Shown piece after piece: positions 13,808 through 38,307 of a DNA stretch of 64,000 nt. The notes under the pieces are model-generated. The model was not told where the DNA came from and did no database searches. It worked only from the letters and a program-made list of their open reading frames with translations. The DNA comes from an uncultured Actinomycetes bacterium (GTDB taxonomy: Bacteria; Actinomycetota; Acidimicrobiia; IMCC26256; PALSA-610). Both the position numbers and the translations under genes were made by a program. Every line of letters begins with the position of its first letter. Position 1 is the first letter of the stretch. The DNA is taken from positions 383,691 through 447,690 of the forward strand of contig CAWAJR010000002.1 in NCBI GenBank assembly GCA_963782465.1. The letters are read 5' to 3'.

Positions 13808-14653
13808 TCAGAGGGCGAGGATCTCGCTGATGGCGTAGACGATCGAGATGACCCCGAGCACGATGCCGACGGCGATACGCAACCGGCGTTCGCTGGCGGT
13901 GATCGCGAGGTGCGCGCCCAACCGAGCACCGGGGATCACGCCGATCGAGAGCGGGATCGCGAACCGCCACGCGATGTCACCGAGGAACGCGTGGGTGACG
14001 GTCCCGGGAATCGCCAGGATGCCGACGACGGCGAGCGACGTTGCGATCGCCCGTTTCAACGGCAGCCGCACCCAGCCCGAAAAGGCCGGCACCATCAAGA
14101 TGCCGCCGCCGACCCCGAGCAGCCCGGACAGGCCGCCGGCCGCGAAGCCGATCAGCCCGAAGCGCCACCAGTCGAGGCGGGGCTGCGCAACCTCGGCCTC
14201 GCCGACCGGGACCGCGGCCGCGCCCACCGACGCCGGTGCGGGCGCCGGCGCGACACGCGGGAACGCGGTGCGGTACGCGGTGAACGCGACCAGGGCCGCG
14301 GTCGCGATCATCAGCAGGTGGCCACCACCGGGAACCACTTTGGCCAGCAGTGAACCGCCGACCGAAGACGCGATGCCGAACGAGCCGGTCCAGCGAACGA
14401 TGTCCCACTCCACGAGACCTTCGCGGTGGTAACGCAGGGTGCCCGTGACCGACGACGGGAAGATCGAAGGGAGCGTCGATCCCACGCTCTGGAGGGGCGT
14501 GGCTCCGAGCGAGCGGATCCCGGGCGTCGACACGACTGCACCGCCGATGCCGAACATCCCCGACAGGACGCCGGTGGCAACACCGACGAGGAGGCAGCCG
14601 GCCACCTGCACCGGTTCCGACACGGTCGCGAGCACCATGACCGGTCCGGTCAC
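13808..14653 (-). CDS. TauE/SafE-family anion (sulfite/sulfonate-type) permease
   Basis: Polytopic membrane protein with two copies of the family's G-rich motif (..LSGMFGIGGAVV.. and ..LSGLLGVGGGILMVP..). GTG 14653 overlaps the upstream stop (GTGA). An alternative start is ATG 14638. Confidence 0.8.
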   Translation of the reverse strand: MTGPVMVLATVSEPVQVAGCLLVGVATGVLSGMFGIGGAVVSTPGIRSLGATPLQSVGSTLPSIFPSSVTGTLRYHREGLVEWDIVRWTGSFGIASSVGGSLLAKVVPGGGHLLMIATAALVAFTAYRTAFPRVAPAPAPASVGAAAVPVGEAEVAQPRLDWWRFGLIGFAAGGLSGLLGVGGGILMVPAFSGWVRLPLKRAIATSLAVVGILAIPGTVTHAFLGDIAWRFAIPLSIGVIPGARLGAHLAITASERRLRIAVGIVLGVISIVYAISEILAL

Positions 14654-15680
14654 GTCGGCGCTCCCGTCCAGAAGAAGTGATCGTCGATCTGGCCGGTGCG
14701 CAGCAGGTGCTGCAGCTGCGCGAGCCGCGTGTACGCGCGGTATTCGAAGGTGGTCGCCGGCATGTCGATACTGCGGAAGACGTCGTGGAGTTGCCGGGCC
14801 CCGCGCCCGCGTCCCACTCGCACGTGTAGCCGGGCAGCACGTCACGGATCTTTTCGAACGCGACGCGGTAGCTGCGGTTGTCGGCGCTGGGTTCGCCGAA
14901 CGACACCTTGCAGTCGGTGAAGACAGACCCGACGATTTCCGCGACTTCGCGGACGCGGTAGTTCTGCTCGGTCGCGCCGACGTTCAGGATCTCGCCGTGC
15001 ACACGCTCGCGCGGCGCCTCGAGCACCATCGCGATGGCTCGACCGATGTCGAGGGCGTGCACGAGCGGCCGCCACGGTGTGCCGTCGCTCGTCATGGCGA
15101 TCTGCCCTGTCGTCCACGCCAGACCGGCGAGGTTGTTCAGCACGATGTCGAATCGCATGCGCGGCGATGCCCCGAACGCGGTCGCGTTGCGCAGGAATGT
15201 CGGGGAGAAGTCGTCGGAAGCGAGCGCCCCGACGTCGCGCTCGACCATTGCCTTGCATTCCGCGTACGCGGTTTGCGGGTCGACGGGCGCTTCCTCGTCG
15301 ACGGTTCCGCCCGCCACTCCGTACACACTGCACGACGACGTGTAGACGAAGCGCGTGATCCCCCGCTGCTTCGCGAGCTGCGCGAGCCGGACCGAACCCT
15401 GATGGTTGATCTCGTAGGTGATGGTCGGCGAGAGTTGCCCGACGGGGTCGTTCGAGAGTTCGGCCATGTGGACGATCGCGTCGACACCGTCGAGATCGGC
15501 CGCGTCGAGCAAGCGAATGTCTTTGTCGAGGGTGTACGCGCTGCGGTCGGTGCCGCGGTACAGCCAACCTTCCTTGTAGAACCCGGTGTCGACACCGACG
15601 ACGTCGTGGCCGCGCGCGAGGAGCAGCGGCGCGAGGAGTGAACCGAGATAGCCCTCAGTGCCGGTGACGAGGACGCGCAC
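14650..15680 (-). pseudogene. NAD-dependent epimerase/dehydratase (SDR), frame broken near 14797-14802
   Basis: VLVTGTEGYLGS..SSCSVYG..YAECK.. is read in ORF 13977..15680. The family-typical C-terminus (QLHDVFRSIDMPATTFEYRAYTRLAQLQHLLRTGQIDDHFFW) is read only in a third frame that ends at TGA 14650-14652. The junction is a CCCC/GGGG run. The span is 1031 nt, which is 3n+2. Confidence 0.8.
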
Positions 15681-15686
15681 CGCCGG

Positions 15687-16457
15687 TCAGCCGAGCCACA
15701 CGGCACGTCGTGCCGGGCCGTACTGCAGCAGCGTGCTCACGGTGACGCTGACAAGCGTCCGTTCGTCGAGCAGGTCGCACATGCGGTCGGCGAGTTCGGC
15801 GCGGTCGAACGACGCCGGTTCCGGTTCGTCGAGCCGCACGACCCGCGGGTCGGCGGCGGCGAGCCCGTCGTGGAACAACACGATCGAGCCGGGGCCGATC
15901 TTGGCCGCGGCCCGGTCGACGTATTCGTCGACGGTGCCGGCGTAACAGTCGCGGGTATTCGTGTCCCACACGACGATGTCGAGCCCGAGAGCCCGGGCGA
16001 GCGCGAACGAGCGCCGGTTCTGCTCGCCGTAGGGCGGCCGGAAATGGTGCACGGGCGCCCCGAGGACCGCTTCGAGCCGGCGCTTCCCGCCGCGCACGAC
16101 GGCGACGGCTTCGCGCAGGTTGCAGGCCCGCAGGTTCCGGTGCTCGCCGCCGTGGAGGGCGACTTCGTGGCCGGCCCGGTGGAGCGCCTGCACGATGTCG
16201 GGGTGGCGTTCCGCCTCGGACGCCAGGACGAAGAACGTGCCTCGCGCGCCCCGCGCCTCGAGCGCGGCGGCGATGGCCGGGGTTCGTTGCGGGTGCGGGC
16301 CGTCGTCGTAGGTGAAGGCCACGACGGGAGAGGCGGTGGTGACCGCGACGATCGACCCGACGAAGCGCCGGTCGCCGGCCGACCGGGCGCGGTGCATCGT
16401 GTTGCGCACGGCGGGCGGCGTGACGTCGCGCAGGCGGGTCCGCACGGTGCCTTGCAT
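15687..16457 (-). CDS. Polysaccharide deacetylase (NodB domain)
   Basis: Contains ..VAFTYDDGPH..GHEVALHGGEH..FRPPYG... This is the 256-aa C-terminal part of listed ORF 15687..17807. The upstream part of that ORF runs through the tandem repeat and is not credible coding. Confidence 0.8.
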   Translation of the reverse strand: MQGTVRTRLRDVTPPAVRNTMHRARSAGDRRFVGSIVAVTTASPVVAFTYDDGPHPQRTPAIAAALEARGARGTFFVLASEAERHPDIVQALHRAGHEVALHGGEHRNLRACNLREAVAVVRGGKRRLEAVLGAPVHHFRPPYGEQNRRSFALARALGLDIVVWDTNTRDCYAGTVDEYVDRAAAKIGPGSIVLFHDGLAAADPRVVRLDEPEPASFDRAELADRMCDLLDERTLVSVTVSTLLQYGPARRAVWLG

Positions 16458-16570
16458 CCGGCCGAGGATACTGACGTTCGGTCGCGCTCTGCGCACGGTG
16501 AGGTCCCCACCGCACCCCGTGGTGTACCGTCCGCGCCACCCGGACGGTGCGGAACACTCGATCAACGACG

Positions 16571-16986: not shown

Positions 16987-16991
16987 AAAAC

Positions 16992-17918: not shown

Positions 17919-17937
17919 TCGGCGAAGGCCCCGGCGT

Positions 17938-18882
17938 TCATTCGGCGCGCCTGGCGTCGTTCGCGACTTCGTACCCACAGGCGGCGAGCAGGTCGCCGGC
18001 CTGAGCCTCGAAGGCGGCCCGGTCTTCGGCCGTCATCTCGGTTCGCCACTTCGACACGACCTTCGGTGGTTCGCGGAGCCGTTGATGGATCTGCGGCTGG
18101 AAGTCGGGCGCGATCACCTCGTCGAACCGTTCGTAGTAACTGAGCATCGCCGGGTCGAACGGAAGATCGTAGAACGCGCAGATCGAGCGGAGCTCCGATT
18201 CGGGCGCGGCCGCCAGGTCTTCGTACCGCACTTCGAGATATCGCGCCGGGCCGAGCATGCGGCCGGCGGTTCGCCCGGCGTTCACGTGTTGCGACCAGTA
18301 CCGGGCGGCACCGGGGACGCGCTTTGGTCCCCATTCGTCGATGCCGGTCACCGAAAGTGCGACGTCGCGGCCGTCGCGCACGATGTGCACGAAACGCGCT
18401 TCGGGGAACAGGCGAGCGAGGAGCGGTAGTTGCAGCACGTAGTTCGGTGTCTTGTCGCCGTAGCGCGCTTTGCCGGCACGGTGGGCGTGCAGCGCGTATA
18501 CGGCCCGGATCGCATCGGCGAACGAGCTTGGCGCGGCCGCTTCGACGGCGCCACGCACTTCGGCTTCGGGGATGGCCCACTGCTGGAAGCGTGCGTGCGC
18601 GCAGAGATCGACCACGAAGGCGTCGGCGTCGAAGCGTCGCCACCAGCGGCGCCGGAACTTCGGCGCGAGCTCGACGATGAAGTACGACTCGCCGGGGATC
18701 GCGAGCTGCGGGTTGGAGTCGAGCATCGCTCGCAGCAACGTCGTGCCGGAGCGCGGGCAGCCGACGACGAACGCGAAGCAGTCGACGCGCGGCGAGTTCA
18801 GGGGCCGACCCGCCGGTCGGTGCCGCCGACCGATGGCGCGGTGCCCCGCTGCCACACGTCGCTCTCGTTGGCAATGTCCCAC
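17938..18882 (-). CDS. Sulfotransferase-family protein
   Basis: 5'-PSB-like motif VVGCPRSGTTLL and 3'-PB-like motif HIVRDGRDVALS. The start is uncertain (GTG 18882 or 18855), and both overlap the wzt 3' end. Confidence 0.8.
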   Translation of the reverse strand: MGHCQRERRVAAGHRAIGRRHRPAGRPLNSPRVDCFAFVVGCPRSGTTLLRAMLDSNPQLAIPGESYFIVELAPKFRRRWWRRFDADAFVVDLCAHARFQQWAIPEAEVRGAVEAAAPSSFADAIRAVYALHAHRAGKARYGDKTPNYVLQLPLLARLFPEARFVHIVRDGRDVALSVTGIDEWGPKRVPGAARYWSQHVNAGRTAGRMLGPARYLEVRYEDLAAAPESELRSICAFYDLPFDPAMLSYYERFDEVIAPDFQPQIHQRLREPPKVVSKWRTEMTAEDRAAFEAQAGDLLAACGYEVANDARRAE

Positions 18883-20051
18883 TCCACTTCGGTGTGCACC
18901 GGCGCCCGGAGCACGACCGCGGTCGGCGGGTCATCGAGCTCGGGGCCGAAGACGTCGAAATGGGTGAGGGGGTGCCACGGTGCGAGCTCGAGGGAGCCGC
19001 GGGAGTGGTCGACGGCCCCGAACCATACGTAGTAGCGACCTCGGGGCAGCGGAAGATGGGTGATCTTCAACCGCACTTCGGTGCCGGTGGCCGACAACTG
19101 CACGTGGTTACGGAACACGAAGATCGGATCGGCGGTACCTTCGCTGATCCCGATGAAGACGCGCGCGTTCGTGTCGTATTGGGCGTCCAACTGGAACTGC
19201 AGTTCGAGCGGGTGCTGCGTCGTCGGCGTCGCCAGGTCGAAGGTCTCGAGGTTGAGGTTCGCAACGCGCACGAGACCACCGGAATCGTCGGCGACCTTGG
19301 CGGCCGCTTCGACCGAACCGCGGTAGGCCGACAAGATCTCCTTGACGGTGCCGTCGGCCATCGCGATGCCGTGGTGCAGCCACACCGCGCGCTGGCAGAT
19401 CGATCCGACGGAGGCAAGGTCGTGCGAGACGTAGACGACGGTGGTGCCCTGGTCGATGACGGCGCGCATGCGGTCGAGGCATCGCTGCTGGAACTGTGCA
19501 TCGCCGACCGCGAGCACTTCGTCGACGAGGAGGATCGCGGGTTCGAGGAACGCGGCCACCGAGAAGCCGAGCCGCATCTGCATACCGCTCGAATAGAACT
19601 TCACCTGCCGGTCGATCGCGAACTCGAGCTGCGCGAAGTCGACGATCGCGTCGAAGCGGGCCATCACCTCGGGCCGCTTCAAGCCGAGGAGGGTCCCGTA
19701 GAGGGCGATGTTCTCACGCCCGGTGAGGTCGGGTTGGATGCCGGCGCGCACCTCGATCAGCGCACCCATACGGCCGACCACGTCGAGCCGCTGCGCGGCG
19801 TACGGCTGCATCACGCCGCAGATGATCTTCAGGAGCGTCGACTTACCGGAGCCGTTGTCGCCGACGAGGCCGACCGACTCGCCCGGTTCGGCCCGCAACG
19901 TGATGTCGCGCAACGCCCACTGCCAGTTGAGGGCCGGACCGCCGAACCGTTCGCGCAGCCGGTCCAACTCGGCCCGCGCCATGCTGGTGCGCAGGTCGGG
20001 GCGGAAGCGCTTCCAGATGCGCTCGGCGTGGATCGTTCCTTCAGGCGCCAT
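18798..20051 (-). CDS. wzt: Polysaccharide ABC-transporter ATP-binding protein (Wzt-like) with a ~170-aa C-terminal extension
   Basis: Walker A GDNGSGKST, signature YSSGMQMRLGF and Walker B ILLVDE. These are followed by a non-NBD, beta-rich C-terminal domain (aa ~250-417). Confidence 0.9.
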   Translation of the reverse strand: MAPEGTIHAERIWKRFRPDLRTSMARAELDRLRERFGGPALNWQWALRDITLRAEPGESVGLVGDNGSGKSTLLKIICGVMQPYAAQRLDVVGRMGALIEVRAGIQPDLTGRENIALYGTLLGLKRPEVMARFDAIVDFAQLEFAIDRQVKFYSSGMQMRLGFSVAAFLEPAILLVDEVLAVGDAQFQQRCLDRMRAVIDQGTTVVYVSHDLASVGSICQRAVWLHHGIAMADGTVKEILSAYRGSVEAAAKVADDSGGLVRVANLNLETFDLATPTTQHPLELQFQLDAQYDTNARVFIGISEGTADPIFVFRNHVQLSATGTEVRLKITHLPLPRGRYYVWFGAVDHSRGSLELAPWHPLTHFDVFGPELDDPPTAVVLRAPVHTEVEWDIANESDVWQRGTAPSVGGTDRRVGP

Positions 20052-21024
20052 TGCGGCTCGTGATGCTACCGGCCAGGTCCAGCGCCAGACGCACGGTCTC
20101 GCGTGACGCGAGCACGGTGGGCTCGATGCGGGCGGCGGCGGCCATCAACCCGCCGATCCTTGAAGGCGAGGGCCCGGTCTCGGCGCGGCGGCGCACGACG
20201 TCGGCGAGGTTGCGGCGCGCCCAGCGTCGCGACGCGCGCCGCAATGCGGGCACGTCGTCGAGTTCTGCGGCGTAGTCGGCCAGGTAGCGACGCTTCACGG
20301 CCTGCACGGCCCGGATCACTTCGAAGTCGGGCCGGTACCCGCCCTGCTCGCCGAGCACCATCGCCCCGGCCTGCACCGTGTCGGACGCCGCGTGCCTGCG
20401 CACCGCGGTGAGCGGCGTGTCGATGTAGCCGACGTCGCCCCGCCGGGCGATGCGCATGAACGCACCCAGATCGGAGGGGCGCCCGTCGGCGGGGTCCCAT
20501 CGCTCACCGAGGATGCAGGTTCGGCGCATCACCGCGCTCGAGAAGTTGATGCGCGCGCCGGCACCGATACAGCGACGGATGAACAGGTCGCCGGGTTCGA
20601 TCACGTCGGCCCGGGTGTGGGTCCAGGTCGCGTACTCCTTCACCACCCGGTCGTCCCCGTCGACGTAGACGAAGGCGGCGTGGGCGACGGCGATGGTGGG
20701 CCACGCGTCGAGCAGCGCGACCTTCCGTTCCAGGTTCTCGGGAAGCATGAGGTCGTCGTCTTGCAACATGGTCACGTAGGGCGCGTCGCCGAGATAGAGC
20801 GAACGGGTGAAGTTGGCGCTCGGCCCGATGTTCTGCTCGAGACGGGCGCTGCGGAAGCGTGGGTCGTCGATACCGGCGACGAACTCCGGGGTCCCGTCGG
20901 TCGAACCGTTGTCGGCGATGAAACACTCGAAGTCGGTGAGCGTCTGATCGGCGACGCTCGCGACGGCGCGGCGTAACAGTTCGACGCGGTTGAACGTGGG
21001 GATCACCACGGTGACTGCGACCAT
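20041..21024 (-). CDS. Family-2 glycosyltransferase
   Basis: Contains VTVVIPTFNR..FIADNGSTDGT..MLQDDD. Confidence 0.85.
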   Translation of the reverse strand: MVAVTVVIPTFNRVELLRRAVASVADQTLTDFECFIADNGSTDGTPEFVAGIDDPRFRSARLEQNIGPSANFTRSLYLGDAPYVTMLQDDDLMLPENLERKVALLDAWPTIAVAHAAFVYVDGDDRVVKEYATWTHTRADVIEPGDLFIRRCIGAGARINFSSAVMRRTCILGERWDPADGRPSDLGAFMRIARRGDVGYIDTPLTAVRRHAASDTVQAGAMVLGEQGGYRPDFEVIRAVQAVKRRYLADYAAELDDVPALRRASRRWARRNLADVVRRRAETGPSPSRIGGLMAAAARIEPTVLASRETVRLALDLAGSITSRNGA

Positions 21025-21025
21025 G

Positions 21026-22399
21026 TCAGCGCGGGTCGCTCTCGTCGTCGGTTTCGGCGAGCAGTTCGTGCTCGATGAGCAGGTCGGCGGCGCCGCGTAC
21101 GACGTCGAACGGCAAGGACGCGCGACGAGCGATGTCGAGCAACGAATGCGACCCGTCGGAAAGGTTGAGCACCCACAGCATCGCCATCTCGGCCGAGTGC
21201 CGATCGACGGCGCCGCCGACGGCGCGGTACAGGCCGCGGCGCCCGAGTTGGGGTTCGCCTTTCGGGTTGCGGTTGCGATAGCGACGGTCGCCCTCGATGA
21301 CGCCGATCACCGCGAGCAAGGTGGTGAGCGCGTCGCCGAGTGACGCGGCCGTGATGAAGTCGAGGTTGTCGGCCGACGTGTGGTACTCGGGGTATTCCCC
21401 GTGCGGTGAGCGGCTCAAGCGACCGACGGGCAGATCGAAACCGGGCGAGCAGTACTGGCGCTCGTCGTACCCGTAGGGGATGAAGTCGAGCGTCGTGAAC
21501 GGTTGCCCGCTCGACGCGAGCACGTGCTCGACGGCGCGATCGACGAGCGTGCCGCCGCGGCGGCTGCGCTTGTAGCTGAACGCGCCCCGGTCGCCGACGC
21601 CCGACAGCACGAGCCCCGCCACGATCCGGCCCACCTCATCCTCGTGCCGGGCCAGCCAGGTGATCGAACCGATCGTGCCCGGGATGAACAGGAAACGGTA
21701 CGTGTGCCGCAGCGCCACACCCTGCAATGCCTGCGCCGCGAAGGTCGCGAGCGCGATCCCGGAGAGGTTGTCGTTCGCCATCGACGGATGGCAGATGTGG
21801 CAGCTCAGCAACACTTCGGTGTCGCGGTCGCCGTCGACCACCGACTCGCCGTAGGTGAGCGAACCCTCGGTGAGCGTCGCGTCGATATCGACTTCGTACT
21901 CGCCATCGGGCAGGGCCTCGAACTGCTCGTGGCTCATACAGATGCCCCACGACCGGTCGTAGTACGAGGTGCGGTAGGGCACGAGCTTCGGCCGGTCGGG
22001 CAGCGTGAAGACGTGCGCGGCGAACGCGTCCCTCGACATGCGCGCGTGCACCGGTTCGCTGTAGCTCACGACATGGAGGTTGTTGTCGGCGAAGTCGACG
22101 ATGCGGCGCCCACTCGGGTCGGTCACCCGGGCGGAGGTGATGTTCCACTCCGGCGGGACGGTCCAATCGAGCACGGGCGTACCGCTCGGAACCTCGGAAA
22201 TCGCGATCGGGACACGCGCGCCGATCCGCCGCAACGTTTCGCGCACGCCGGCCCCGGTGATACTCCGGCAGATCGGGAACAGCTCGCTCGCGAATGCGTA
22301 CATCGCGTCGCCGGCTGCCGCACTCTCGACCTTCGCGCGCACATCGCCGAGTGACGGCGCAGTCACCAGACCTTCCAGGGAGCCTCGCCCCGCTGCCAC
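21026..22399 (-). CDS. DUF4910 / aminopeptidase-like domain protein with C-terminal winged-helix
   Basis: 457 aa. ..LLSCHICHPSMANDNLSGIA.. and ..YHTSADN.. resemble an M28-like fold. The C-terminal ..MLWVLNLSDGSHSLLDIA.. looks like a wHTH. The family assignment is from memory of the motifs. Confidence 0.7.
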   Translation of the reverse strand: MAAGRGSLEGLVTAPSLGDVRAKVESAAAGDAMYAFASELFPICRSITGAGVRETLRRIGARVPIAISEVPSGTPVLDWTVPPEWNITSARVTDPSGRRIVDFADNNLHVVSYSEPVHARMSRDAFAAHVFTLPDRPKLVPYRTSYYDRSWGICMSHEQFEALPDGEYEVDIDATLTEGSLTYGESVVDGDRDTEVLLSCHICHPSMANDNLSGIALATFAAQALQGVALRHTYRFLFIPGTIGSITWLARHEDEVGRIVAGLVLSGVGDRGAFSYKRSRRGGTLVDRAVEHVLASSGQPFTTLDFIPYGYDERQYCSPGFDLPVGRLSRSPHGEYPEYHTSADNLDFITAASLGDALTTLLAVIGVIEGDRRYRNRNPKGEPQLGRRGLYRAVGGAVDRHSAEMAMLWVLNLSDGSHSLLDIARRASLPFDVVRGAADLLIEHELLAETDDESDPR

Positions 22400-23178: not shown

Positions 23179-23258
23179 GTCCTCCACCCGGAAGCGTAGT
23201 AACCGACACCCACCTCGTCGGGCTGGCCGCACGCGAGCGGTCACTAGCATCAGATCCA

Positions 23259-24311: not shown

Positions 24312-24363
24312 GCCGCTCGAGGCCGCGACGGTTTCGAACGAGAGCCGTACGCGAAACTTGTTC

Positions 24364-25593: not shown

Positions 25594-27410
25594 TGCACGG
25601 TTTGGCAATGTCGTTCGCGTCCGAAGAGGACGGCCGGCGAGCAGCCTTTGTGCAACGGGCGGTTCGTGTTCTCCAAGTCGTGGCCCAGTCGCCGGCGACC
25701 GTCGTGCGGCAGGCCGGCGGGGCGGTAGTACTCGCGGGGACGTCGGCACACACGTCGGATCTTCCGGGGACCTTCGCGGCTCCGCTCACGGCGACGCTCG
25801 TCAGCGTCGACGGGCAGGTCGTCGAACCGCACAAGCTGCCGCGACTCGCGGACCACGGTCGAGTGGCGTTCGACCGCATCGCGCCTCCCGGCGCAATGCT
25901 CTGCTGGTCGGAACAAACCGCCGAAGTCGTCGCGTACACCGACTCGGTCGGGCTCAAGCAACTCTTCTACGCCGAGGGCACGGGGATGGCACTGTGCGCC
26001 ACCTCGAGCGTCGCGATCGGTGCGGTGCTCGGCCTCGAACTCGACGACGAGGCCATCGCCGCCTTTGCCTTGCTCGGCTACTACGCGGGTACGAGGACAG
26101 CGTTTCGTGGGGTGAAGAAGCTGCCTCCGGCCGGTGCGTGCACGTTGCGCAGCGGACGGGCGGCCATCCACACCTATGCGCAACCAGTGTTCGAGGTGGC
26201 GCGCAGCCGCTCGGGTGATGCGCCGTCGGGCGTGGACGCGGTGCGTACTGCGCTCGGCGCGTGCATTCGCGCCTTTCCCGACGCGACGCTCGAGCTGAGC
26301 GGCGGCATGGACAGCCGGATGATCGTCGCAACGCTCACGCAGCAAGAGCGTCTGCATCGGTCGGCGTTCACACTCGCGTCGAACGACACCGACAACGTGG
26401 CGATCGCTCGCCAGATCGTGGCGCTCGCCGGTTTCGATCACCAAGTTGTCGAGCCGGGCCATGTCGCTGAGCTCGCAGGCTCGAAGCTGGCTGCATTGTG
26501 CCATGACGCATCGCTCGCACGCGACCACGCGACGAATGCGATCGACAGCGCGACCCTCGACTGGGTCGAGCGCGGTTTGCACCAGGGCGGGCGCATCACC
26601 GGGCAGAACGGTGAGTTCGCACGGGGCGTCTACTACCGAGGCATTCCCACCTCGCTCGTCGACCGCCGCGCCGCCTCGGGAGTCGCGGCGCGCGGTCTCG
26701 CCCGCTACGTCACCGACTGGCGCCTCCTCGTCAACCGATCGCTCGACGACCGCCTCTTCCCGCCCGGTTTGCTCGATGCAGGGCGCGACCTCGTTCGGCA
26801 CGAGGTTGCAGCGACACTCGAGCTTCACGCACCCGAGTACACACGCGGGCTCGACGAGTTGTACCTCACGTTGCGCATGAGCCGCTGGGTCGGCCCTGAG
26901 TACAGCGCTTCGGCCACTCGGCGTCCGGTCCTCGCGCCCTTCTTTCATCCGAGCTACCTCGAATGGGCGCGCTCGATGCCGGCGAGCGCGAAGCGGAACG
27001 GACGCGTGTTCGCGCTGGTTCTGACGCGGCTGGACCCCGTGCTTGCCGCGCTGCCCCTCGACCGTCGGACGTACACGATCGCTGATCTCGCGAACGGCAA
27101 CCTGAACGCCCGCCTCGGCAATGCGGCGCGGCTCGCCCGACGCCTCCAAGCGAAAGTCGCGCAACGCGCCCGCGGCGCGGAGATGGCCTATTCCACGACC
27201 CGCACCGTCGCCGGTTCCATCGTCGAACACTGGCGCACCGACCCGAGGGCGCTCGACCCCCTCCTCGGCGTCGGCTTCCTCAGGCCCGAGGGCATTTCCG
27301 ATCTCACGGTGGGTACCGCAACCGAGAGTTCCGCCACGATCGGCTTCCTGATCAGCCTGGCGGGAACGCTCGACATCGTCTCGGCCGCACGGTCGGTCGC
27401 GATTCCCTGA
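25593..27410 (+). CDS. Asparagine synthetase (AsnB)-like adenylating enzyme lacking the N-terminal Cys nucleophile
   Basis: PP-loop-type motif LELSGGMDSR. The ATG overlaps the upstream TGA by 1 nt. The N-terminus is MHGLAMS.., not MCG... Confidence 0.8.
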   Translation: MHGLAMSFASEEDGRRAAFVQRAVRVLQVVAQSPATVVRQAGGAVVLAGTSAHTSDLPGTFAAPLTATLVSVDGQVVEPHKLPRLADHGRVAFDRIAPPGAMLCWSEQTAEVVAYTDSVGLKQLFYAEGTGMALCATSSVAIGAVLGLELDDEAIAAFALLGYYAGTRTAFRGVKKLPPAGACTLRSGRAAIHTYAQPVFEVARSRSGDAPSGVDAVRTALGACIRAFPDATLELSGGMDSRMIVATLTQQERLHRSAFTLASNDTDNVAIARQIVALAGFDHQVVEPGHVAELAGSKLAALCHDASLARDHATNAIDSATLDWVERGLHQGGRITGQNGEFARGVYYRGIPTSLVDRRAASGVAARGLARYVTDWRLLVNRSLDDRLFPPGLLDAGRDLVRHEVAATLELHAPEYTRGLDELYLTLRMSRWVGPEYSASATRRPVLAPFFHPSYLEWARSMPASAKRNGRVFALVLTRLDPVLAALPLDRRTYTIADLANGNLNARLGNAARLARRLQAKVAQRARGAEMAYSTTRTVAGSIVEHWRTDPRALDPLLGVGFLRPEGISDLTVGTATESSATIGFLISLAGTLDIVSAARSVAIP

Positions 27411-27437
27411 TCACGTCGGTCCACCGTCCGGCCGGCG

Positions 27438-29408
27438 TCAGAACAGCGTCGACGCCCAATCGTCGTAGCCGTGGGCGTTGCGCCAGGTCTGTGCCGGGCT
27501 CGGGGTACCCGCCGGCGGCGCGGAGGTGCTGATGCCGCTGTCGACCACGTCGACCCGCGACGGAATGGTGTTGCTGGTGCGGATCTGCTGGCCGTCGATG
27601 ATCTCGAGCCGGTCGAGCCCGTTGTGGTGGCCCCACGATCGGATGTCGATCCGGCGCCCGGAGATGCCGCGTGGCGTCACGGTGCGCTTGGCCGTGAACG
27701 TGAAGCCTCCGCTCGGCGAATTCGACACCCAGGTGCGTTCGAAGTCGAGGTCAACCGGTCCGCCCGACGTTCCGTCCTTGCTGTCTTGGATCATGATCCG
27801 TCCCCGCAACCACGAGTCGAGGACGCGCAACCCCGAGATCTTCCCCCCGACGCCACCGATTACGTCGGGATGCACGACGTCTTGCGGGTCAAGGTCGTCG
27901 TCGGTCATGTTCCAGGCCGACACACCCTGCAGGAGGGTGTCGGTGCTGTTCGACACGAGGAACGCCGAGCCCGTGTCGTGCACGTCGGCGCCGTAGAACG
28001 AGACGCGCTGGGTCGACTGCTTGTCGGCATAGATCGTGCGCGGTGCTCGGTAGGGGCCGCGTTCGGGGTGCGACTTGTCAGGCGCTTGGCCGACCCACGC
28101 CTGCGCGGGGAATGAGTGGTCGGTGTACCAGAACGCGAGGTTGTTCCCGTACGCATAGAGCGAACCGTTGATGAACTTGAAGCCGACGAAGAGCACCCGG
28201 CTCGTCGTCGCGTCGAGCGTCAGCGGCGATCCGGAGAGGTCGACCACCACGCCGTCCTTGGACTCGGCGCGCAGCACGAGCCATCCCTTGTACTTCCCGG
28301 CCGTGGCCGCGTGGGGAGCAGAAACGGTTCCGGCTCGGTACGTCCCGTCGGGGACGGTCAGCACCTGGTCGCCGTGCTGCTGGATGTAGGTGACGATGTT
28401 CGAACCAAGATCGGTCGGGGGTGGTGACGGTGACCCGTCGCCCGGGCTCGTCGTCGGCGTCGTGCTCGGCGTCGTGCTCGGCGATGTGCTCGGCGATGTG
28501 CTCGGCGATGTGCTCGGCGGCACGCCGGGGTGGGTCGCCGGGGACCGGGCGGGGATGGTCGTCGACGGGGCCTTCGAACCGCTCTTGCCGCCGCTGCCCC
28601 GGAAGTACTCGGGGTAGTGCACCGCGGTCCCGTTGGCCGACATGACCTCCCACGAACCACTCGCGAGCCGCACGAGCCCGACGAGCACGCGGCTGCGCAA
28701 CGCGCTCGCGCTGTAGACGCCGGCGCCGTAGCCGTACACGTGACTGTCGTTGGCCGTCAGCCAGTAGCCGTGACCGTGCGAGGGTACGGCGATGCTCGTC
28801 ACGGCTGCGCTCGCGTGCCCCGCGGCGGACCCGTGGAACGCGGCGTGACCAAAGCTGAAGACGCCACCGTCCTGGGCCACGAGCCAGTAGCCGAGGCCGT
28901 CGCGAGTCGGCGCCATCGCCGCGATCGGGCTCTTCAACCGGATGACGGCGGCCGAACCGCGGAAGTGGGCATCACCGAAGCTGAACACCCCACCGTCGGA
29001 GGCAACCAGCCAGTAGCCCCGGCCCGAAGGCGTCGCGGCCATGCCGACGATCGGCTCGTTGAGATGGATCGCGCCGAGTGAACCTTTGAAACGCGCGTTG
29101 CCGAAGCTGAACACGCCGCCGTCGGAGGCCGTCAACCAGTAGCCGTGGCCGGATGGCGTCGCGGCGATGCCGACGATCGGTTCCCTGAGATGGATGCTCT
29201 GGGCGCCGCCGTAGGGACGGGCGTCGCCGAAGCCACGTACGAGGCCGTTCGAGTAGACGACCCAATAGCCACGACCCGAGGGCGTCGAGGCGAACGAGAC
29301 CGGAGCCACCGCCGGTGTCTGCGCCTGGAGCATCCCCTGCCAGCCGCCGATCGCGGCCAGTGTGAGGATGGTCGCACCGATCGCGATCGCGCGTCGACGG
29401 TGTCGCAT
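27438..29408 (-). CDS. Secreted protein: signal peptide, ~5 copies of a 42-aa 'GYWL..DGGVF.FG' repeat, S/T/P linker, C-terminal unknown domain
   Basis: Signal peptide MRHRRRAIAIGATILTLAAIGG... Repeats such as GYWLVASDGGVFSFGDAHFRGSAAVIRLKSPIAAMAPTRDGL. Linker PSTSPSTSPSTSPSTTPSTTPTTSP. The C-domain is paralogous to 24364..25593. Confidence 0.85.
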   Translation of the reverse strand: MRHRRRAIAIGATILTLAAIGGWQGMLQAQTPAVAPVSFASTPSGRGYWVVYSNGLVRGFGDARPYGGAQSIHLREPIVGIAATPSGHGYWLTASDGGVFSFGNARFKGSLGAIHLNEPIVGMAATPSGRGYWLVASDGGVFSFGDAHFRGSAAVIRLKSPIAAMAPTRDGLGYWLVAQDGGVFSFGHAAFHGSAAGHASAAVTSIAVPSHGHGYWLTANDSHVYGYGAGVYSASALRSRVLVGLVRLASGSWEVMSANGTAVHYPEYFRGSGGKSGSKAPSTTIPARSPATHPGVPPSTSPSTSPSTSPSTTPSTTPTTSPGDGSPSPPPTDLGSNIVTYIQQHGDQVLTVPDGTYRAGTVSAPHAATAGKYKGWLVLRAESKDGVVVDLSGSPLTLDATTSRVLFVGFKFINGSLYAYGNNLAFWYTDHSFPAQAWVGQAPDKSHPERGPYRAPRTIYADKQSTQRVSFYGADVHDTGSAFLVSNSTDTLLQGVSAWNMTDDDLDPQDVVHPDVIGGVGGKISGLRVLDSWLRGRIMIQDSKDGTSGGPVDLDFERTWVSNSPSGGFTFTAKRTVTPRGISGRRIDIRSWGHHNGLDRLEIIDGQQIRTSNTIPSRVDVVDSGISTSAPPAGTPSPAQTWRNAHGYDDWASTLF

Positions 29409-29869: not shown

Positions 29870-30985
29870 ATGCGCGTAACGCGGGCGCGGTCGATGGTTT
29901 CGTCGCGCAACTGGAATCGGGCGCGTGACCTCCTCGCGACGTACGGCGACTTCTACCGCCAGTCGCCGCAGCGCAAGCCGGTGCATCGGCAGGTCGACGA
30001 AGCGGCACGGTTGTGGCGGGCCTACCGTTTCCCGCCGTACCAGTACCTGAAGCACGGCTTGTTCGAACGCGACGTGCGGGGTGACGTCGCCGCGTTCATG
30101 CCGATCGAGTGGTTCCACCGGTTCCGCGACGAGCGAAATACGCCGGACGCCGCGCGTGCAGTCATCGACAAGGCGGAGTTCGGGCGACGGATGGAGGCCG
30201 CCGGCTTGCCGGTTGTGCGTGAGTTGTTCGTCGTCGCGCGCGACCGCACCATCGTGGACGCGGCGCGCCGTCCGGTCAGCTTCGATTCGATGGTTGAGAC
30301 GCTCCTGGAACGACCGGTCACTACCCACTTCGTGAAACCGATGGCGAGCGGACAGGGTCGGGGGGCGTTCCGCGTCCTCGAGCGTGAACAGAAACTTCTC
30401 GTCGACGACGACGTGATCACCGAGGCATGGTTCTTCGAGCGATTGTTCGGCGATCGTCCGCACAAGAACTACGTGGTCCAACCAAACATCTGTCAGCATC
30501 CGTTGCTCGAGCGGCTGAACCCGGCGTCGGTCAATACGGTGCGGATCGACACCTTCATTGACGGCGATCGAGTGCAGATCAGTACCGCGCTGTTGCGAAC
30601 AAGCGACGGTACGTGCTGCACCGACAACCTCTCGACCGGTGGCTTCATCGTGGAGATCGATGTCGCCACCGGAGCCCTCGGGGCTGAAGCCCGAACCAAG
30701 CCGGGGCTTTCGCGTCGGTATGTCAGCGCTCATCCCGTGACGGGGTTTGTCTTCGACGGTGTGGTGCTACCGCACTGGGACGCGCTCCTCGACTGTGTTC
30801 GCCGCGGCGCCGAAGCGTTGCCCTCGTTGGGTTCCATCGGCTGGGACGTCGCCATCACGGCCGACGGCCCACTGTTCATCGAGGCTAATCACACCTACGA
30901 TTTCTCGACCCAGCAAGAAGGCGCTCGCGGGTTACGCGACACGCCTCTCGGCTGTGCTGTTCGCGAACGTTATGGGTTGGGTTGA
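29870..30985 (+). CDS. ATP-grasp protein of the sugar-transfer-associated type (ATPgrasp_ST-like)
   Basis: 371 aa. ..HFVKPMASGQGRG.. is followed by ..NTVRIDTF.. and ..GGFIVEIDVATG..WDVAIT.DGPLFIEAN.., the usual ATP-grasp C-terminal layout. Confidence 0.7.
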   Translation: MRVTRARSMVSSRNWNRARDLLATYGDFYRQSPQRKPVHRQVDEAARLWRAYRFPPYQYLKHGLFERDVRGDVAAFMPIEWFHRFRDERNTPDAARAVIDKAEFGRRMEAAGLPVVRELFVVARDRTIVDAARRPVSFDSMVETLLERPVTTHFVKPMASGQGRGAFRVLEREQKLLVDDDVITEAWFFERLFGDRPHKNYVVQPNICQHPLLERLNPASVNTVRIDTFIDGDRVQISTALLRTSDGTCCTDNLSTGGFIVEIDVATGALGAEARTKPGLSRRYVSAHPVTGFVFDGVVLPHWDALLDCVRRGAEALPSLGSIGWDVAITADGPLFIEANHTYDFSTQQEGARGLRDTPLGCAVRERYGLG

Positions 30986-31653
30986 CGACATTTCTGCGAC
31001 GTCTTGCCGACGTCGAAGCCTCCGAGTCCTTGTCCAACCGCCTTCGGCGCCGCCGCTTTGCGCGTTTTCAGTCGCTCCTCGCTGAGCTCGAGCACCCGGT
31101 TCGCATCCTCGACGTCGGCGGCACCGAAACGTTCTGGCAGAACATGCGGGTCGAGACGTCCGATTCGATCAGCGTCGTTCTGCTCAACCTCGACGTCACG
31201 GCGCCGACGAGTTCGACGTTCAGCGTCGCGCGCGGCGACGCGACCGACCTTTCGCGCTACGCCGACGGGGCGTTCGATGTTGTGTTCTCCAACTCCGTCA
31301 TCGAGCACGTCGGGGATCTCCACGCGCAACGCCGTATGGCCGATGAAGTGCGGCGGGTGGCGACGCACTACTGGGTTCAGACGCCATGCCGGTGGTTCCC
31401 GATCGAACCTCATTTCCTGTTCCCGCTCTTCGGGGTGATGCCCATCTCGTTGCGAGCCTGGTTCATCAGGCATTTCTCCCTCGGCTGGCGTGAACGGGTA
31501 CCCGATCGAGATGCGTCGTACCGCGCGGCAAGGTCGGTCCGGCTCCTCAGCCGGCGAGAGCTCCAGTCGATGTTCCCCGATGCCGCGTGCCTGCGAGAGC
31601 GGTTCTTCGGGTTGACGAAGTCGTGGATCCTGATCGGCGGCTGGCCGCACTGA
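30982..31653 (+). CDS. Class I SAM-dependent methyltransferase
   Basis: Contains RILDVGG.. and ..FDVVFSNSVIEHV... Its TTG start overlaps the ATP-grasp stop by 4 nt. Confidence 0.8.
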   Translation: MTTFLRRLADVEASESLSNRLRRRRFARFQSLLAELEHPVRILDVGGTETFWQNMRVETSDSISVVLLNLDVTAPTSSTFSVARGDATDLSRYADGAFDVVFSNSVIEHVGDLHAQRRMADEVRRVATHYWVQTPCRWFPIEPHFLFPLFGVMPISLRAWFIRHFSLGWRERVPDRDASYRAARSVRLLSRRELQSMFPDAACLRERFFGLTKSWILIGGWPH

Positions 31654-31714
31654 CATCCGGTACGGGTAGGCGCACCGCCGGGCCCCGCACGGTTGCGTCT
31701 ACCCTGCGCGTCGC

Positions 31715-32638
31715 ATGACCGCATCGCCGCCGATCCTCGTCGTCGGCATCTCTCGCCGGAGCGGTACGAACTATCTCGCCAGCCTGATCTCGCTGCACGA
31801 GGACTGCGCGCCACCGCGGCCACCGCTGGCCGAAGATCATCTGCTGCGCGACGCGACGTTGCTCACGGAGTACGCGCGCCGGGCGTCGGAACGATGGCCG
31901 CTGCGCTGGGGTGATCGCGCCGATGCGCGCACACGGTTGCAGTGGAGCCTTGGTGCGGCGCTCGAGGCATTCCTCGCCGACGGCGTGGCGGCACCACGTG
32001 TCGTGAGCAAGACCCCGAGCCCCGAACATCTCGACCTCCTCCCCGACCTCCTTCCCGACGCGTACGTCATCGTGCTCCTGCGCGACGGGCGCTCGACCGT
32101 GCAATCGATGGTGCGGGGCTTCCGTTTCTCCTTCCACAAAGCCGCGAGCGAATGGGCCGCCGGTGCCGCGTCGATCCTTGCGTTCCAGCGCGATGTCGTG
32201 CCCGCGCACCCGGGGTTGCGGGTGCGGATCGTGAAGTACGAAGACGTCGTCGCCGACACCGAGCGCGAGCTGCGCGCGCTACTCGAGTTCTGCGCGCTCG
32301 ACACGACCCGCTTCGACTTCGCGGCCGCGGTGAATGCACCCGTGATCGGGTCGTCGTTCGTGCGCACCGGTGAGGGCCGGCTCACCTGGCAACCGCAAGC
32401 CCGCACGACCGACTTCTCGCCCACGAGGCGGTTCGAACAATGGGGTGCGGCTTCCCGCGCGCGCTTCGACCATCTCGCCGGCGACCTCCAACGCGCGCTC
32501 GGCTACGAGTCGCCCGCCGTCACGGGTCAGGCCTGGTCGGTGTTCAACCGCGTGGCTGATGCCGCGGCACCCCTTGCGCGGCTCCGCGACGACGCGACCC
32601 AGCGCTACTACGTCCGGAAAGCCCGGCGCCGAGCCTGA
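31715..32638 (+). CDS. Sulfotransferase-family protein
   Basis: Contains PILVVGISRRSGTNYL (PSB-like loop) and VIVLLRDGRSTVQS (3'-PB-like). Confidence 0.75.
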   Translation: MTASPPILVVGISRRSGTNYLASLISLHEDCAPPRPPLAEDHLLRDATLLTEYARRASERWPLRWGDRADARTRLQWSLGAALEAFLADGVAAPRVVSKTPSPEHLDLLPDLLPDAYVIVLLRDGRSTVQSMVRGFRFSFHKAASEWAAGAASILAFQRDVVPAHPGLRVRIVKYEDVVADTERELRALLEFCALDTTRFDFAAAVNAPVIGSSFVRTGEGRLTWQPQARTTDFSPTRRFEQWGAASRARFDHLAGDLQRALGYESPAVTGQAWSVFNRVADAAAPLARLRDDATQRYYVRKARRRA

Positions 32639-32662
32639 AGCGCGATAGGCGGGCAGAACGAG

Positions 32663-32709
32663 AACGCCCCGAGCTCGACCGTTTGCGGGGGAACGGCGAG
32701 CTCGGGGCG
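32663..32709. terminator. Long GC hairpin between convergent sulfotransferase genes
   Basis: The 14-bp arm acgccccgagctcg pairs with cgagctcggggcgt. The loop contains an inner 5-bp stem (ccgtt/aacgg). Confidence 0.5.
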
Positions 32710-32905
32710 TCTCACGACGGCGAGCAGGTTCCCCGCCGGCGATATGGCAACCGGACGGCGCGATGGGCTGTCGGAAAATGCGACGGCCGTACCCCCCGGG
32801 CAACTCATGTGCCTCTCCATTCGTGATCGGCATTTGCCGGCGTGACGCTTGAGCCGCTGGGCGCGATTTGTCCGACAAAATGTCCGATAAGAGGGCGGGC
32901 GCGGC

Positions 32906-33835
32906 CTACGCGATCCCCCAGCCGTCGAAGTCGGGACCGACGAACGGCTTCAGGCGGGCGACGTCGTCGTGGAAGGACGCCCGCAGTTCGGCTGCCCGGC
33001 CCGCGGGGAGGATGCCCGCGTCGAGGTCGACGGGCCGGGTCAGGAGGCGCTCGCCGGCGCGGCGTACGGCAACCGGGGTGCGGTCGACCACGGCCCGGTA
33101 GAGCCGGTTGCCGTGCAGGTGCCGCCACACGGCACGACGGGTGCGTTTCGTCTCGGTACGCCCGCGCTCCTCATCGATGGAGGCAGGCACCTCGCGGTCG
33201 TCGACACCGATGAAACGGAACAATCGGGCCAACGTCGCTTCGCGGTCCGCTTTCAAGGCTTCGGAGGTGAGCACGCAGATCCGGTCCGGATCGAAGAACT
33301 CGAGGTACTGGTCGAGTTGCCATGCATAGCGGCTCGAGTTCAGGTACATCGGTTCTTCAGCCAGCGCCTGCTCGATCGGCCGGGTTTCTCGGCCCCTCGC
33401 CAACTCGTGCAGGTACATCGAGCACGCCCGCGCGACCGGTTCGCGAACCAGGTACACCAACTTCACCTCAGGTACCACTTGCGCGATCCGTGCCGCGACG
33501 CCGGGGAACTGGTCGGCTTGCGAATACGACGGCGAAACCTCGCCGCGGGCGATCGCATCGCCTGCCGCGGCGAAATGCTCGGCGTACCACTCGACGCCTT
33601 CGTCCCAGTGCTTCGACGCGGGGAAGAAATGCAGTTCCTTGGGTGTGGCCATGAAGACCTGCGAGTGGGCCTGGAGGTAGCCGTAGAGGCTGGTGGTTCC
33701 CGATTTCATCGCGCCGATCACCAGGAAGGTCGGCAGTACCAATCCGTCGTTCAACTTCGCCTGCTTGTCGGTGCTGACGGGCAATGGTCGCGCGGTAGCA
33801 CCATCCGGCTCGCAGTTCGTGAGGAGCCCGAGCAT
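32906..33835 (-). CDS. Sulfotransferase (Sulfotransfer_1-like)
   Basis: Contains FLVIGAMKSGTTSLYGYL (5'-PSB) and KLVYLVREPVARACS (3'-PB). Confidence 0.85.
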   Translation of the reverse strand: MLGLLTNCEPDGATARPLPVSTDKQAKLNDGLVLPTFLVIGAMKSGTTSLYGYLQAHSQVFMATPKELHFFPASKHWDEGVEWYAEHFAAAGDAIARGEVSPSYSQADQFPGVAARIAQVVPEVKLVYLVREPVARACSMYLHELARGRETRPIEQALAEEPMYLNSSRYAWQLDQYLEFFDPDRICVLTSEALKADREATLARLFRFIGVDDREVPASIDEERGRTETKRTRRAVWRHLHGNRLYRAVVDRTPVAVRRAGERLLTRPVDLDAGILPAGRAAELRASFHDDVARLKPFVGPDFDGWGIA

Positions 33836-37387: not shown

Positions 37388-37410
37388 TCCTTCCACTCGA
37401 ACGAGTACGC

Positions 37411-38289: not shown

Positions 38290-38307
38290 GCCAGGCCGGA
38301 GCGAAGA

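Follow-up and report, generated by a model that had tools for sequence, protein, structure and literature searches.

Three sulfotransferase genes in a glycan island

The stretch of DNA analysed here, a 64,000-nucleotide window on contig CAWAJR010000002.1 (positions 383,691 to 447,690) of the uncultured Actinomycetes assembly GCA_963782465.1 (Acidimicrobiia; IMCC26256; PALSA-610), from a soil bacterium known only through metagenomes, contains three sulfotransferase genes, which we call ST1 (17938..18882, minus strand), ST2 (31715..32638, plus strand), and ST3 (32906..33835, minus strand). They lie within one large cell-envelope glycan island that extends from approximately 350 to 47,100 of the window (~45 kb). 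The window has a GC content of 65-71%, and its genes were called by third-position GC and then annotated with Pfam and NCBIfam. The island encodes a UDP-sugar dehydrogenase, short-chain dehydrogenase/reductase (SDR) epimerases, an initiating Bac_transf phosphoglycosyl transferase, at least nine GT2/GT4 glycosyltransferases, two polysaccharide deacetylases, and an ABC-2 permease (Wzm), together with two AsnS-like amidotransferases, S-adenosylmethionine (SAM) methyltransferases, a sugar-transfer-associated ATP-grasp protein, a DegT aminotransferase, and a GFO oxidoreductase. An earlier inspection of the letters and translations (hereafter the sequence-only reading) had picked out the three genes by loops of the type that binds 3'-phosphoadenosine 5'-phosphosulfate (PAPS) and had predicted a multiply sulfated cell-surface glycan. 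All three open reading frames (ORFs) and their motifs were confirmed where it had placed them, with Pfam matches far above the gathering scores.

Exactly three sulfotransferase genes were detected when every six-frame ORF of the window was searched with profile hidden Markov models, one for each of the three subfamilies. Each exceeds the cutoff of 27 bits for the Sulfotransfer_3 family PF13469 (ST1, 146.6 bits, E = 1.7e-42; ST2, 76.4 bits, 5.1e-21; ST3, 56.0 bits, 9e-15), and ST1 (39.8 bits) and ST3 (49.1 bits, 6.7e-13) also pass the cutoff of 22 bits for the Sulfotransfer_1 family PF00685, with ST2 (21.4 bits) falling below it. The 5'-phosphosulfate loops, PRSGTT in ST1, RRSGTN in ST2, and KSGTTS in ST3, align to the phosphosulfate-binding (PSB) loops of tyrosylprotein sulfotransferase (TPST), CurM, and the heparan-sulfate (HS) 3-O-sulfotransferase 3-OST. 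The 3'-phosphate motifs are RDGRDVALS, RDGRSTVQS, and REPVARACS, respectively, whose Arg and Ser show little or no variation within each subfamily, as judged over 29 ST1, 22 ST2, and 13 ST3 relatives. The catalytic base is Glu in TPST, CurM, and 3-OST and His in the cytosolic SULTs; alignment to solved structures places a Glu at this position in all three proteins, and the Lys of a "KTP" motif in ST1 and ST2 aligns to the "KDP" of TPST. The sequence-only reading had named the loss of catalytic and PAPS-binding residues as an outcome that would speak against it, and the alignments show these residues to be retained.

ST1 belongs to the TPST/CurM-like branch of Sulfotransfer_3 and carries the motifs CPRSGTT and RDGRDV. 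The RSGxT loop, E33, K112-T-P, and RDGR...S are invariant among its homologs, with Ser145 in the class conserved in at least 90% of them. The Glu lies 21 residues past the PSB Arg and is invariant as E33 in the reference sequence A1, a spacing equal to that between R78 and E99 of TPST2. In an AlphaFold2 model built with an alignment (pLDDT 95, pTM 0.92), ST1 has the α/β fold of the PAPS sulfotransferases. Foldseek matched the model to TPST1/2 and then to the CurM/OLS sulfotransferases, with E-values of 4e-12 to ~1e-9 and TM-scores of 0.61-0.68, followed by the mycobacterial Stf9 and Stf1 with TM-scores of 0.45-0.52. The best NCBIfam match is the fucose sulfotransferase NoeE, at 59.9 bits far below the equivalog cutoff of 500 bits. 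Codon 33 of ST1 is GTC where the closest homolog has its ATG start, and the only in-frame starts, GTG 18855 and GTG 18882, would make ST1 overlap the end of wzt by 58 and 85 nt, respectively; one of these two is probably the start, and N-terminal extensions are found in some ST1 homologs. A public gene call, P0001 (262 aa, from M53), omits the PAPS-binding loop of ST1 and is probably a miscall.

ST2 is a divergent Sulfotransfer_3 protein on the TPST/CurM-like branch, with the motifs RRSGTN and RDGRST. Its subfamily is small (36 matches), and R15, S16, G17, T18, N19, E40, D41, R123, D124, and S131 are invariant within the relatives compared. ST3, with KSGTTS and VREPVARA, belongs instead to the heparan-sulfate 3-OST/NST-like branch; its best PDB match is the bacterial structure 3rnl (7e-21), and HS 3-OST is matched at 1e-13. 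K44, T47, T48, E67, R131, P133, R136, and S139 are invariant in its subfamily. E67 aligns to the catalytic Glu of 3-OST, and the ST3 subfamily does not conserve the His that adjoins this Glu in 3-OST. For ST3, TTG 33754 is the probable start codon.

Among named relatives the closest is the metagenome-assembled genome (MAG) GCA_025463905.1, labelled Actinomycetia/Actinomycetes bacterium, where a single 31-kb contig carries orthologs of ST1, ST2, and ST3 arranged in the order seen here. Raw BLAST identities are 77% for ST1 and 74% for ST2, and approximately 75% for each in codon alignments. A 131-kb metagenome contig from JGI has ST2 and a sulfotransferase at the ST3 position in the same order, and the stretch shown ends before the position of wzt-ST1; near-identical sequence is also present in soil metagenomes. 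Against the orthologs of the sister MAG, the ratio of nonsynonymous to synonymous substitution (dN/dS) is 0.20 for ST1, 0.21 for ST2, and 0.16 for ST3, similar to the neighbouring genes. The three ORFs are full length with no internal stops, and independent metagenome contigs show no indels in the parts of the sulfotransferase genes that they cover, the region 18640-19000 lying outside this coverage. All three apparently encode genuine, functional PAPS-type sulfotransferases under purifying selection. A crude hydropathy scan found no hydrophobic or transmembrane segment in any of them, so all three should be cytoplasmic, which would fit both the use of PAPS and modification of a lipid-linked glycan before export.

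Neither a Pfam search of all coding-like ORFs nor tblastn with the E. coli proteins found a gene for CysD, CysN, CysC, or CysH in the window, as the sequence-only reading had stated for cysD/N/C. In two related loci, adenosine 5'-phosphosulfate (APS) kinase genes of the CysC type lie ~100-150 bp from ST1-family genes (L021, 153-593; L027, 10970-11524), and in a third (L041, 222-1450) matches to cysH, cysD, and cysC lie ~8.5 kb from its sulfotransferase. The APS kinases near ST1-family genes support PAPS dependence of the family. One metagenome locus, selected by the C-terminal domain of Wzt described below, has an inositol-monophosphatase/CysQ-family gene right after wzt.

The wzt-ST1 operon and the Wzm/Wzt exporter

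ST1 is encoded in a minus-strand operon whose ORFs overlap or abut and which runs from an RfbF-like NTP-transferase (22363-23274) through a DUF4910/HTH_47 protein (21026-22399), a GT2 glycosyltransferase (20041-21024), and Wzt (18798..20051) to ST1. ST1 is the last gene since it is convergent with a plus-strand PhyH-like gene, and the ORF layout thereby bears out the operon order that had been proposed. The order NTP-transferase, DUF4910, GT2 recurs in the sister MAG and in one JGI contig. A scan for promoters and terminators between 13.6 and 24 kb gave fewer sites than shuffled sequence.

Wzt, the ATPase of a glycan ABC exporter (matches to ABC_tran and to TagH/Wzt in NCBIfam), consists of a nucleotide-binding domain (NBD, aa 42-249) and a C-terminal carbohydrate-binding domain (CBD, aa 250-417; 18801-19304 of the window). 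The ~170 residues beyond the ATPase domain are conserved in ten genome loci. They are modelled as an eight-strand β sandwich with a pLDDT of 66 overall and 76-85 in the core, and the top Foldseek matches (8dl0, 5hno, 8dky, 6o14, and 2r5o; E = 3e-5 to 2e-3, TM-scores 0.48-0.55) have as the best PDB hits the cap-binding domains of Wzt from A. aeolicus, R. terrigena O12, and E. coli O9a. Pfam Wzt_C gives a weak match (E = 0.014) in five of 14 family members, a profile search of the domain against PDB sequences returned chance matches only, and a word-index homolog search gave four matches; the assignment therefore rests on the fold search and the weak Pfam hint. We regard the domain, with the moderate confidence of the model, as a CBD of the cap-recognising type. 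Known Wzt CBDs bind a terminal modification, or cap, at the non-reducing end of the chain (PMC9445017, PMC3482155).

The permease partner Wzm is encoded at 4444..5265 on the minus strand (matches to ABC2_membrane, galactan-Wzm, and KpsM), the longer ORF 4441-6156 being over-extended, and it is 48% identical to the Wzm of a related locus (L003) over 274 aligned residues (270 query residues). Here 13.5 kb separates wzm (4444-5265) from wzt (18798-20051), and the two belong to different operons; most related loci have them side by side with an overlap.

The association of wzt with sulfotransferases was examined in reverse by a metagenome scan with the CBD only, which gave 206 relatives, of which 80 loci were kept. 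A sulfotransferase is detectable in 19 of the 80 and lies within ~310 nt of wzt in 13. Among the first downstream neighbours of wzt in the CBD clade (n = 55), sulfotransferases rank second with 11, after GT2 with 16. The association is recurrent and not obligatory, and it fits sulfation of a polymer exported by the ABC transporter. The idea that an Arg motif in the CBD tracks the presence of a sulfotransferase was rejected, as three loci without the Arg pair (L018, L019, and L075) have sulfotransferases nearby all the same. A search of PDB sequences found no resemblance to the chain terminator WbdD in the cap candidates of the island, namely ST1 and the methyltransferases 6299-7270 and 30982-31653; for 6299-7270, considered as a WbdD-like terminator in its own right, there was no PDB sequence match.

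The ST2/ST3 cassette and other genes of the island

ST2 is the third gene of a plus-strand operon that begins with a sugar-transfer-associated ATP-grasp protein (29870-30985) and a SAM methyltransferase (30982-31653), both assigned by Pfam. ST2 and ST3 are convergent neighbours, as had been described, and 267 nt separate the two stop codons. What lies upstream of ST2 is variable: the ATP-grasp and methyltransferase genes occupy this slot here, and a cytochrome P450 gene in both relatives, the sister contig (L082, 8693-9949) and the JGI contig, where the P450 lies 52-60 nt from ST2 and is divergently transcribed. Between its two sulfotransferases, the JGI contig additionally encodes a methyltransferase and an ALK_LTK_GRD-domain protein. 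A P450 adjoining ST2 was looked for in this genome and rejected, there being none in the window. ST3 is flanked at 33871..40385 by genes assigned by Pfam to a GT4, a DegT aminotransferase, a GFO/MocA oxidoreductase, a GT2, a second GT4, and a second GT2, which are syntenic in the sister loci. ST2 and ST3 look to us like members of a separate, variable, serotype-like decoration cassette between conserved flanks.

At lower window positions than the wzt operon, a minus-strand operon encodes a polysaccharide deacetylase, an SDR protein, and a TauE/SafE permease of the TSUP family (TC 2.A.102). The permease (13808..14653; PF01925, 1.6e-45, 156 bits against a cutoff of 32.6) has five hydrophobic segments in a crude hydropathy scan, and its GTG start overlaps the stop codon of the SDR gene in the sequence GTGA. 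The SDR gene (14650..15680; NAD-dependent epimerase/dehydratase, PF01370, 2.2e-42) changes frame near 14800 as assembled. Contigs from two independent metagenome runs have an extra C after 14805, in a C-run at 14795-14810, and with this C inserted a single SDR ORF of 343 aa results, whose TGA overlaps the GTG of TauE. The frame break is an assembly error, and the alternative that the SDR gene is a pseudogene was rejected on the same evidence; the coupling of TauE to SDR claimed by the sequence-only reading therefore stands, and the contig carries assembly errors of the homopolymer type. The deacetylase, the first gene of the operon, is placed at 15687..16500 with an approximate start; its match (Polysacc_deac_1, 5e-28) lies in the C-terminal part of a long ORF in which the frame profile of third-position GC is coding only from ~16500 downwards.

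Among the remaining genes, the likely initiating enzyme is a Bac_transf polyprenyl-phosphate sugar-phosphate transferase (2733..4388, minus strand; PF02397, 6e-42). A Wzy_C-like membrane protein (~42212-43643, minus strand) was found by tblastn with the Wzy_C protein of the sister MAG, and it adjoins a gene for a Wzz-like protein (43640-44497, minus strand) with a weak Wzz Pfam match (E = 1.1e-4), whose 22.9 bits are below the gathering score of 25.5; five transmembrane segments are predicted at 42212..44497. The island may thus have a further system for assembly or ligation. A Wzx flippase was not recognised in the window, where Wzm/Wzt is the clear exporter.

Genes at 353-1648, 35112-37387, 25389-27410, and 40442-42178 encode a UDP-sugar 6-dehydrogenase, a GFO/MocA oxidoreductase, a DegT aminotransferase, and two AsnS-like amidotransferases, a set reminiscent of the WbpA/B/E pathway for 2,3-diamino uronic acids, plus amidation. 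The genes clustered at 9997-13786 encode a sugar C-methyltransferase (Methyltransf_13/14), a cytidylyltransferase of the IspD-like kind, and a DXR-like oxidoreductase of the DRL type; they suggest that the glycan has a CDP-activated component, either branched or a polyol. Two proteins without a Pfam match (24259-25593 and 27438-29408) have in common a paralogous domain of ~325 aa, which the sister MAG retains with 58-67% identity; in the 656-aa protein, the N-terminal half shows repeats that also occur in a surface protein (45420-46300) and a DUF4397-like ORF (51790-52540). Both are possibly secreted proteins that bind or process glycans. A Big_9/cadherin-like surface protein (45408-48132, minus strand) is broken into overlapping ORFs in different frames (45408-47111 and 46564-48132), probably by an indel error and otherwise by a real frameshift, and the split of the Wzy_C-like region (42212-43643) is probably likewise an assembly error of the homopolymer type.

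Relatives, known systems and the predicted sulfated glycan

Relatives of ST1 are numerous. More than 5,500 were found at E ≤ 1e-10 among the candidates scored, and a scan of one genome per species gave at least 574, the best 80 of which are nearly all from MAGs of Acidimicrobiia, Thermoleophilia/Solirubrobacterales, and Actinomycetes. We counted sulfotransferases within about ±10 kb in these best 80 loci plus the sister locus, all from uncultured Actinomycetota and chosen only for having an ST1 relative; the counts per locus are approximate because a few genes are split. One sulfotransferase is present in 29 loci, two in 23, three in 12, four in nine, five in four, six in two, and seven in two, so that 52 of the 81 loci (64%) have at least two and 29 (36%) at least three, with up to seven in tandem. 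The sequence-only reading had held three sulfotransferases to be unusual for a high-GC genome of the Gram-positive type, and this did not survive the comparison: the multi-sulfotransferase glycan locus is genomically commonplace and biochemically uncharted. In five loci (L043, L044, L045, L022, and L069), five to seven tandem ST1-family paralogs occupy ~12 kb of one strand with no Wzt nearby; these are of Solirubrobacterales/Thermoleophilia, L045 being labelled Acidimicrobiia.

Sulfotransferases in glycan clusters have precedents (PMC8205485, PMC13390465, PMC11641403). The synechan cluster xss of Synechocystis sp. PCC 6803 has, like the island, several sulfotransferases of different subfamilies among many glycosyltransferases (PMC8205485). 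It is cyanobacterial, plasmid-borne, Wzx/Wzy-dependent, regulated by XssS/R/Q, and experimentally proven, with two sulfotransferases; the window, from an actinomycete, combines three sulfotransferases with Wzm/Wzt and its CBD, has no such regulator, and would make a predicted sulfated product. The exopolysaccharide cluster wps-1 of the actinomycete Actinoplanes missouriensis, described in 2026, encodes two sulfotransferases of different families and a methyltransferase, and its WpsH is, like ST3, of the heparan-sulfate type; a sulfated product is predicted (PMC13390465). It differs in being Wzx/Wzy-dependent, in an adjacent CysNC-like gene with a deletion phenotype, and in a genetic link to sporangium formation, whereas the window combines an ABC exporter with ST1 and ST2 of the Sulfotransfer_3/TPST-like type, and no gene for PAPS lies close by. 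The trait common to xss and wps-1, at least two sulfotransferases in a glycosyltransferase-rich cluster, is found here with three among at least nine glycosyltransferases. In the literature, a sulfated polysaccharide in an actinomycete is still a prediction (PMC13390465), and such polymers are regarded as rare outside cyanobacteria (PMC8205485).

The rhizobial enzymes NodH, NoeE, LpsS, and KpsS are soluble, PAPS-dependent, and act on sugars of envelope or secreted glycoconjugates, and NodH belongs to PF13469 as do ST1 and ST2 (PMC11625862). They serve Nod factors, lipopolysaccharide (LPS), or K-antigen in Gram-negative hosts, and NodH is accompanied by NodPQ for PAPS. The mycobacterial Stf0 (sulfolipid-1), Stf1, Stf3 (sulfomenaquinone, with Cyp128), and Stf9 are actinobacterial cytoplasmic PAPS enzymes acting on envelope molecules. 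Their acceptors are trehalose, lipids, and quinones, not polymers exported by Wzm/Wzt, and Stf9 and Stf1 are structural neighbours of ST1 that match it much more weakly than TPST or CurM. The exporters of E. coli O9a, Aquifex aeolicus, and Raoultella terrigena O12 have the same architecture of permease, NBD, and C-terminal β-sandwich CBD (PMC9445017, PMC3482155); the window differs in its host of the Gram-positive type, in a CBD identity of 15-18%, and in the sulfotransferase next to wzt, and no WbdD-like kinase/methyltransferase with a coiled coil was identified in it. Vibrio sp. KMM 8419 and Cobetia marina make chemically proven sulfated capsules, and their clusters are analysed in the cited papers (PMC11641403, PMC11766843); these are capsule-type clusters of Gammaproteobacteria. 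The list of precedents in the sequence-only reading (rhizobial Nod factor and LPS, mycobacterial sulfolipids, and some cyanobacterial and marine exopolysaccharides) omits the marine Gram-negative sulfated capsules and the Actinoplanes missouriensis prediction. Given how common such loci are among uncultured relatives, this one is ordinary rather than exceptional, a predicted sulfated-glycan cluster of an already known or predicted kind.

A sulfated glycan is the most economical prediction for genuine sulfotransferases inside a cell-envelope glycan island. In the reading that we favour and consider fairly probable, one or more envelope glycans are sulfated in the cytoplasm, ST1 is tied to the Wzm/Wzt polymer, and ST2 and ST3 are part of the variable decoration cassette. 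The Bac_transf enzyme would start the glycan on polyprenyl phosphate, and GT2 and GT4 enzymes would extend it in the cytoplasm from unusual nucleotide sugars, such as CDP-hexose derivatives and WbpA/B/E-like amino-uronic-acid products, with amidation by the AsnS-like proteins. Methyl-, acetyl-, and sulfotransferases would decorate the chain, and the Wzm/Wzt transporter, through a Wzt with a carbohydrate-binding domain, would export it. Within this scheme, the three soluble cytoplasmic sulfotransferases would draw on PAPS made elsewhere in the genome and transfer sulfate to hydroxyl (or amino) groups of sugars in the lipid-linked glycan or glycans before export. ST1, co-made with Wzt, would most likely act on the ABC-exported polymer, and ST2 and ST3 on the same polymer or a second one. 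Here we infer the acceptor, the positions of sulfation, the use of PAPS, and the location of the product at the cell surface. That all three enzymes act on one glycan, as the phrase "multiply sulfated" implied, is unproven, since the island apparently encodes more than one assembly system, with Wzy_C- and Wzz-like genes in addition to the ABC transporter. Several observations weigh against the favoured scheme: PAPS-synthesis genes are absent from the window, the start codon of ST1 is uncertain, the contig contains at least one proven indel error (in the SDR gene), the P450 next to ST2 in the sister genomes would also fit a lipid or small-molecule acceptor, and the nearest solved structures of ST1 and ST2 are protein-tyrosine and acyl-ACP sulfotransferases and not carbohydrate enzymes, so that the fold leaves the acceptor of these two unfixed.

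The last two points lead to the main alternative, in which one or more of the sulfotransferases, most plausibly ST2, has a non-glycan acceptor, such as protein or peptide tyrosine (RaxST/TPST-like), an isoprenoid quinone or lipid, or a small metabolite, and owes its position in the island to shared regulation or chance. The best sequence and fold matches of both ST1 and ST2 are TPSTs and CurM/OLS acyl-ACP sulfotransferases, an ST2 homolog carries the name "protein-tyrosine sulfotransferase" in one source, and the gene for a large Big_9/cadherin surface protein lies close by. The divergent P450 found beside ST2 in both syntenic relatives recalls the pair cyp128-stf3; Stf3-Cyp128 is the sulfomenaquinone system of M. 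tuberculosis. However, the similarity to TPST and CurM is limited to the PAPS-binding core at 21-26% identity, and ST2 is here co-directional with the sugar-transfer-associated ATP-grasp gene in a window that has no P450. The ST1-wzt operon recurs in distant relatives, ST3 is of the heparan-sulfate carbohydrate type, and the carbohydrate sulfotransferases NodH and NoeE fall in the same Pfam family (PMC11625862). On balance we consider a non-glycan acceptor rather unlikely. A far more sceptical view would take the sulfotransferase genes as decaying or inactive remnants, or as artefacts of an error-prone assembly, in keeping with the proven one-nucleotide deletion in the SDR gene and other split ORFs of the contig, with the missing ST1 start codon at the position used by the homolog, and with a public call that begins past the PAPS loop. 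It is hard to reconcile with full-length, uninterrupted ORFs that keep their motif residues and have dN/dS values of 0.16-0.21, with the independent contigs free of indels where they cover the genes, and with the GTG starts available upstream for ST1, some of whose homologs are extended at the N-terminus; we give it hardly any credence.

Two further proposals concern the part played by TauE and the function of ST1. The sequence-only reading had counted TauE as part of the sulfation set, which could mean sulfate import for PAPS synthesis or export of a sulfur by-product. The permease is a true member of the TauE/TSUP family, it is translationally coupled to the glycan genes for deacetylase and SDR, and the TSUP family includes an actinobacterial sulfate importer of high affinity that has been characterised (PMC5840216). 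That importer, CysZ of Corynebacterium glutamicum, belongs to the same broad family (TSUP/TauE, PF01925) and differs in its context: it is encoded in an assimilatory sulfate-reduction operon, whereas the operon partners of TauE are not sulfur enzymes. The TSUP family is ubiquitous and paralog-rich in each genome, with diverse and mostly unknown substrates (PMC5840216), and TauE scores far below every NCBIfam equivalog cutoff. Moreover, tblastn (E ≤ 1e-2) found no TauE homolog in 162 related loci containing a sulfotransferase or Wzt-CBD (2.04 Mb), the sister-MAG contig ending before the corresponding position. The link is unsupported, a role of TauE in sulfur supply is a guess, and we think it unlikely that the permease is a working part of sulfation. 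Less likely still is the proposal that ST1 is a chain terminator, which would place sulfate on the non-reducing terminal sugar as a cap that the Wzt CBD reads as an export signal, coupling chain length to export. The modelled cap-binding fold points in this direction, as do the position of ST1 directly after wzt and overlapping it, likewise in the sister MAG, the 13 of 80 CBD-selected loci with a closely placed sulfotransferase and its rank as second commonest downstream neighbour, and a conserved LPLPRGRY motif in the CBD, whose two Arg may bind an anion. Yet 61 of the 80 loci of the CBD clade, many with ample flanking DNA, show no sulfotransferase, the loci L018, L019, and L075 dissociate the Arg pair from sulfotransferases, and the confidence of the CBD model is moderate. 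The two island methyltransferases (6299-7270, divergent from wzm, and 30982-31653) are conventional cap candidates. In known systems methyl, phosphomethyl, and Kdo caps couple chain length to export, and no sulfate cap is reported in the literature searched. The adjacency of ST1 and wzt is equally explained by sulfation along the chain.

For the wider biology, the comparative result is more useful than the window itself: multi-sulfotransferase glycan loci, often beside Wzm/Wzt, are widespread in uncultured soil Actinomycetota (Acidimicrobiia, Thermoleophilia, and Actinomycetes). Chemically proven bacterial sulfated polysaccharides in the literature consulted come only from cyanobacteria and a few marine Gram-negatives, and rhizobia and mycobacteria make sulfated glycolipids. 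If the products of these loci are sulfated, envelope-glycan sulfation would be common and overlooked in soil Gram-positives, with consequences for how cells bind cations, tolerate desiccation, and are recognised by phages, and for soil sulfur pools. Biocatalysis could also draw new carbohydrate sulfotransferases from these loci. A Wzt CBD paired with a sulfotransferase offers, in addition, a concrete, testable idea on export signals: if it proved true, sulfate would be a previously unrecognised cap, and the same would hold across an entire clade of Wzt-CBD transporters in Actinomycetota that have a sulfotransferase next to them.

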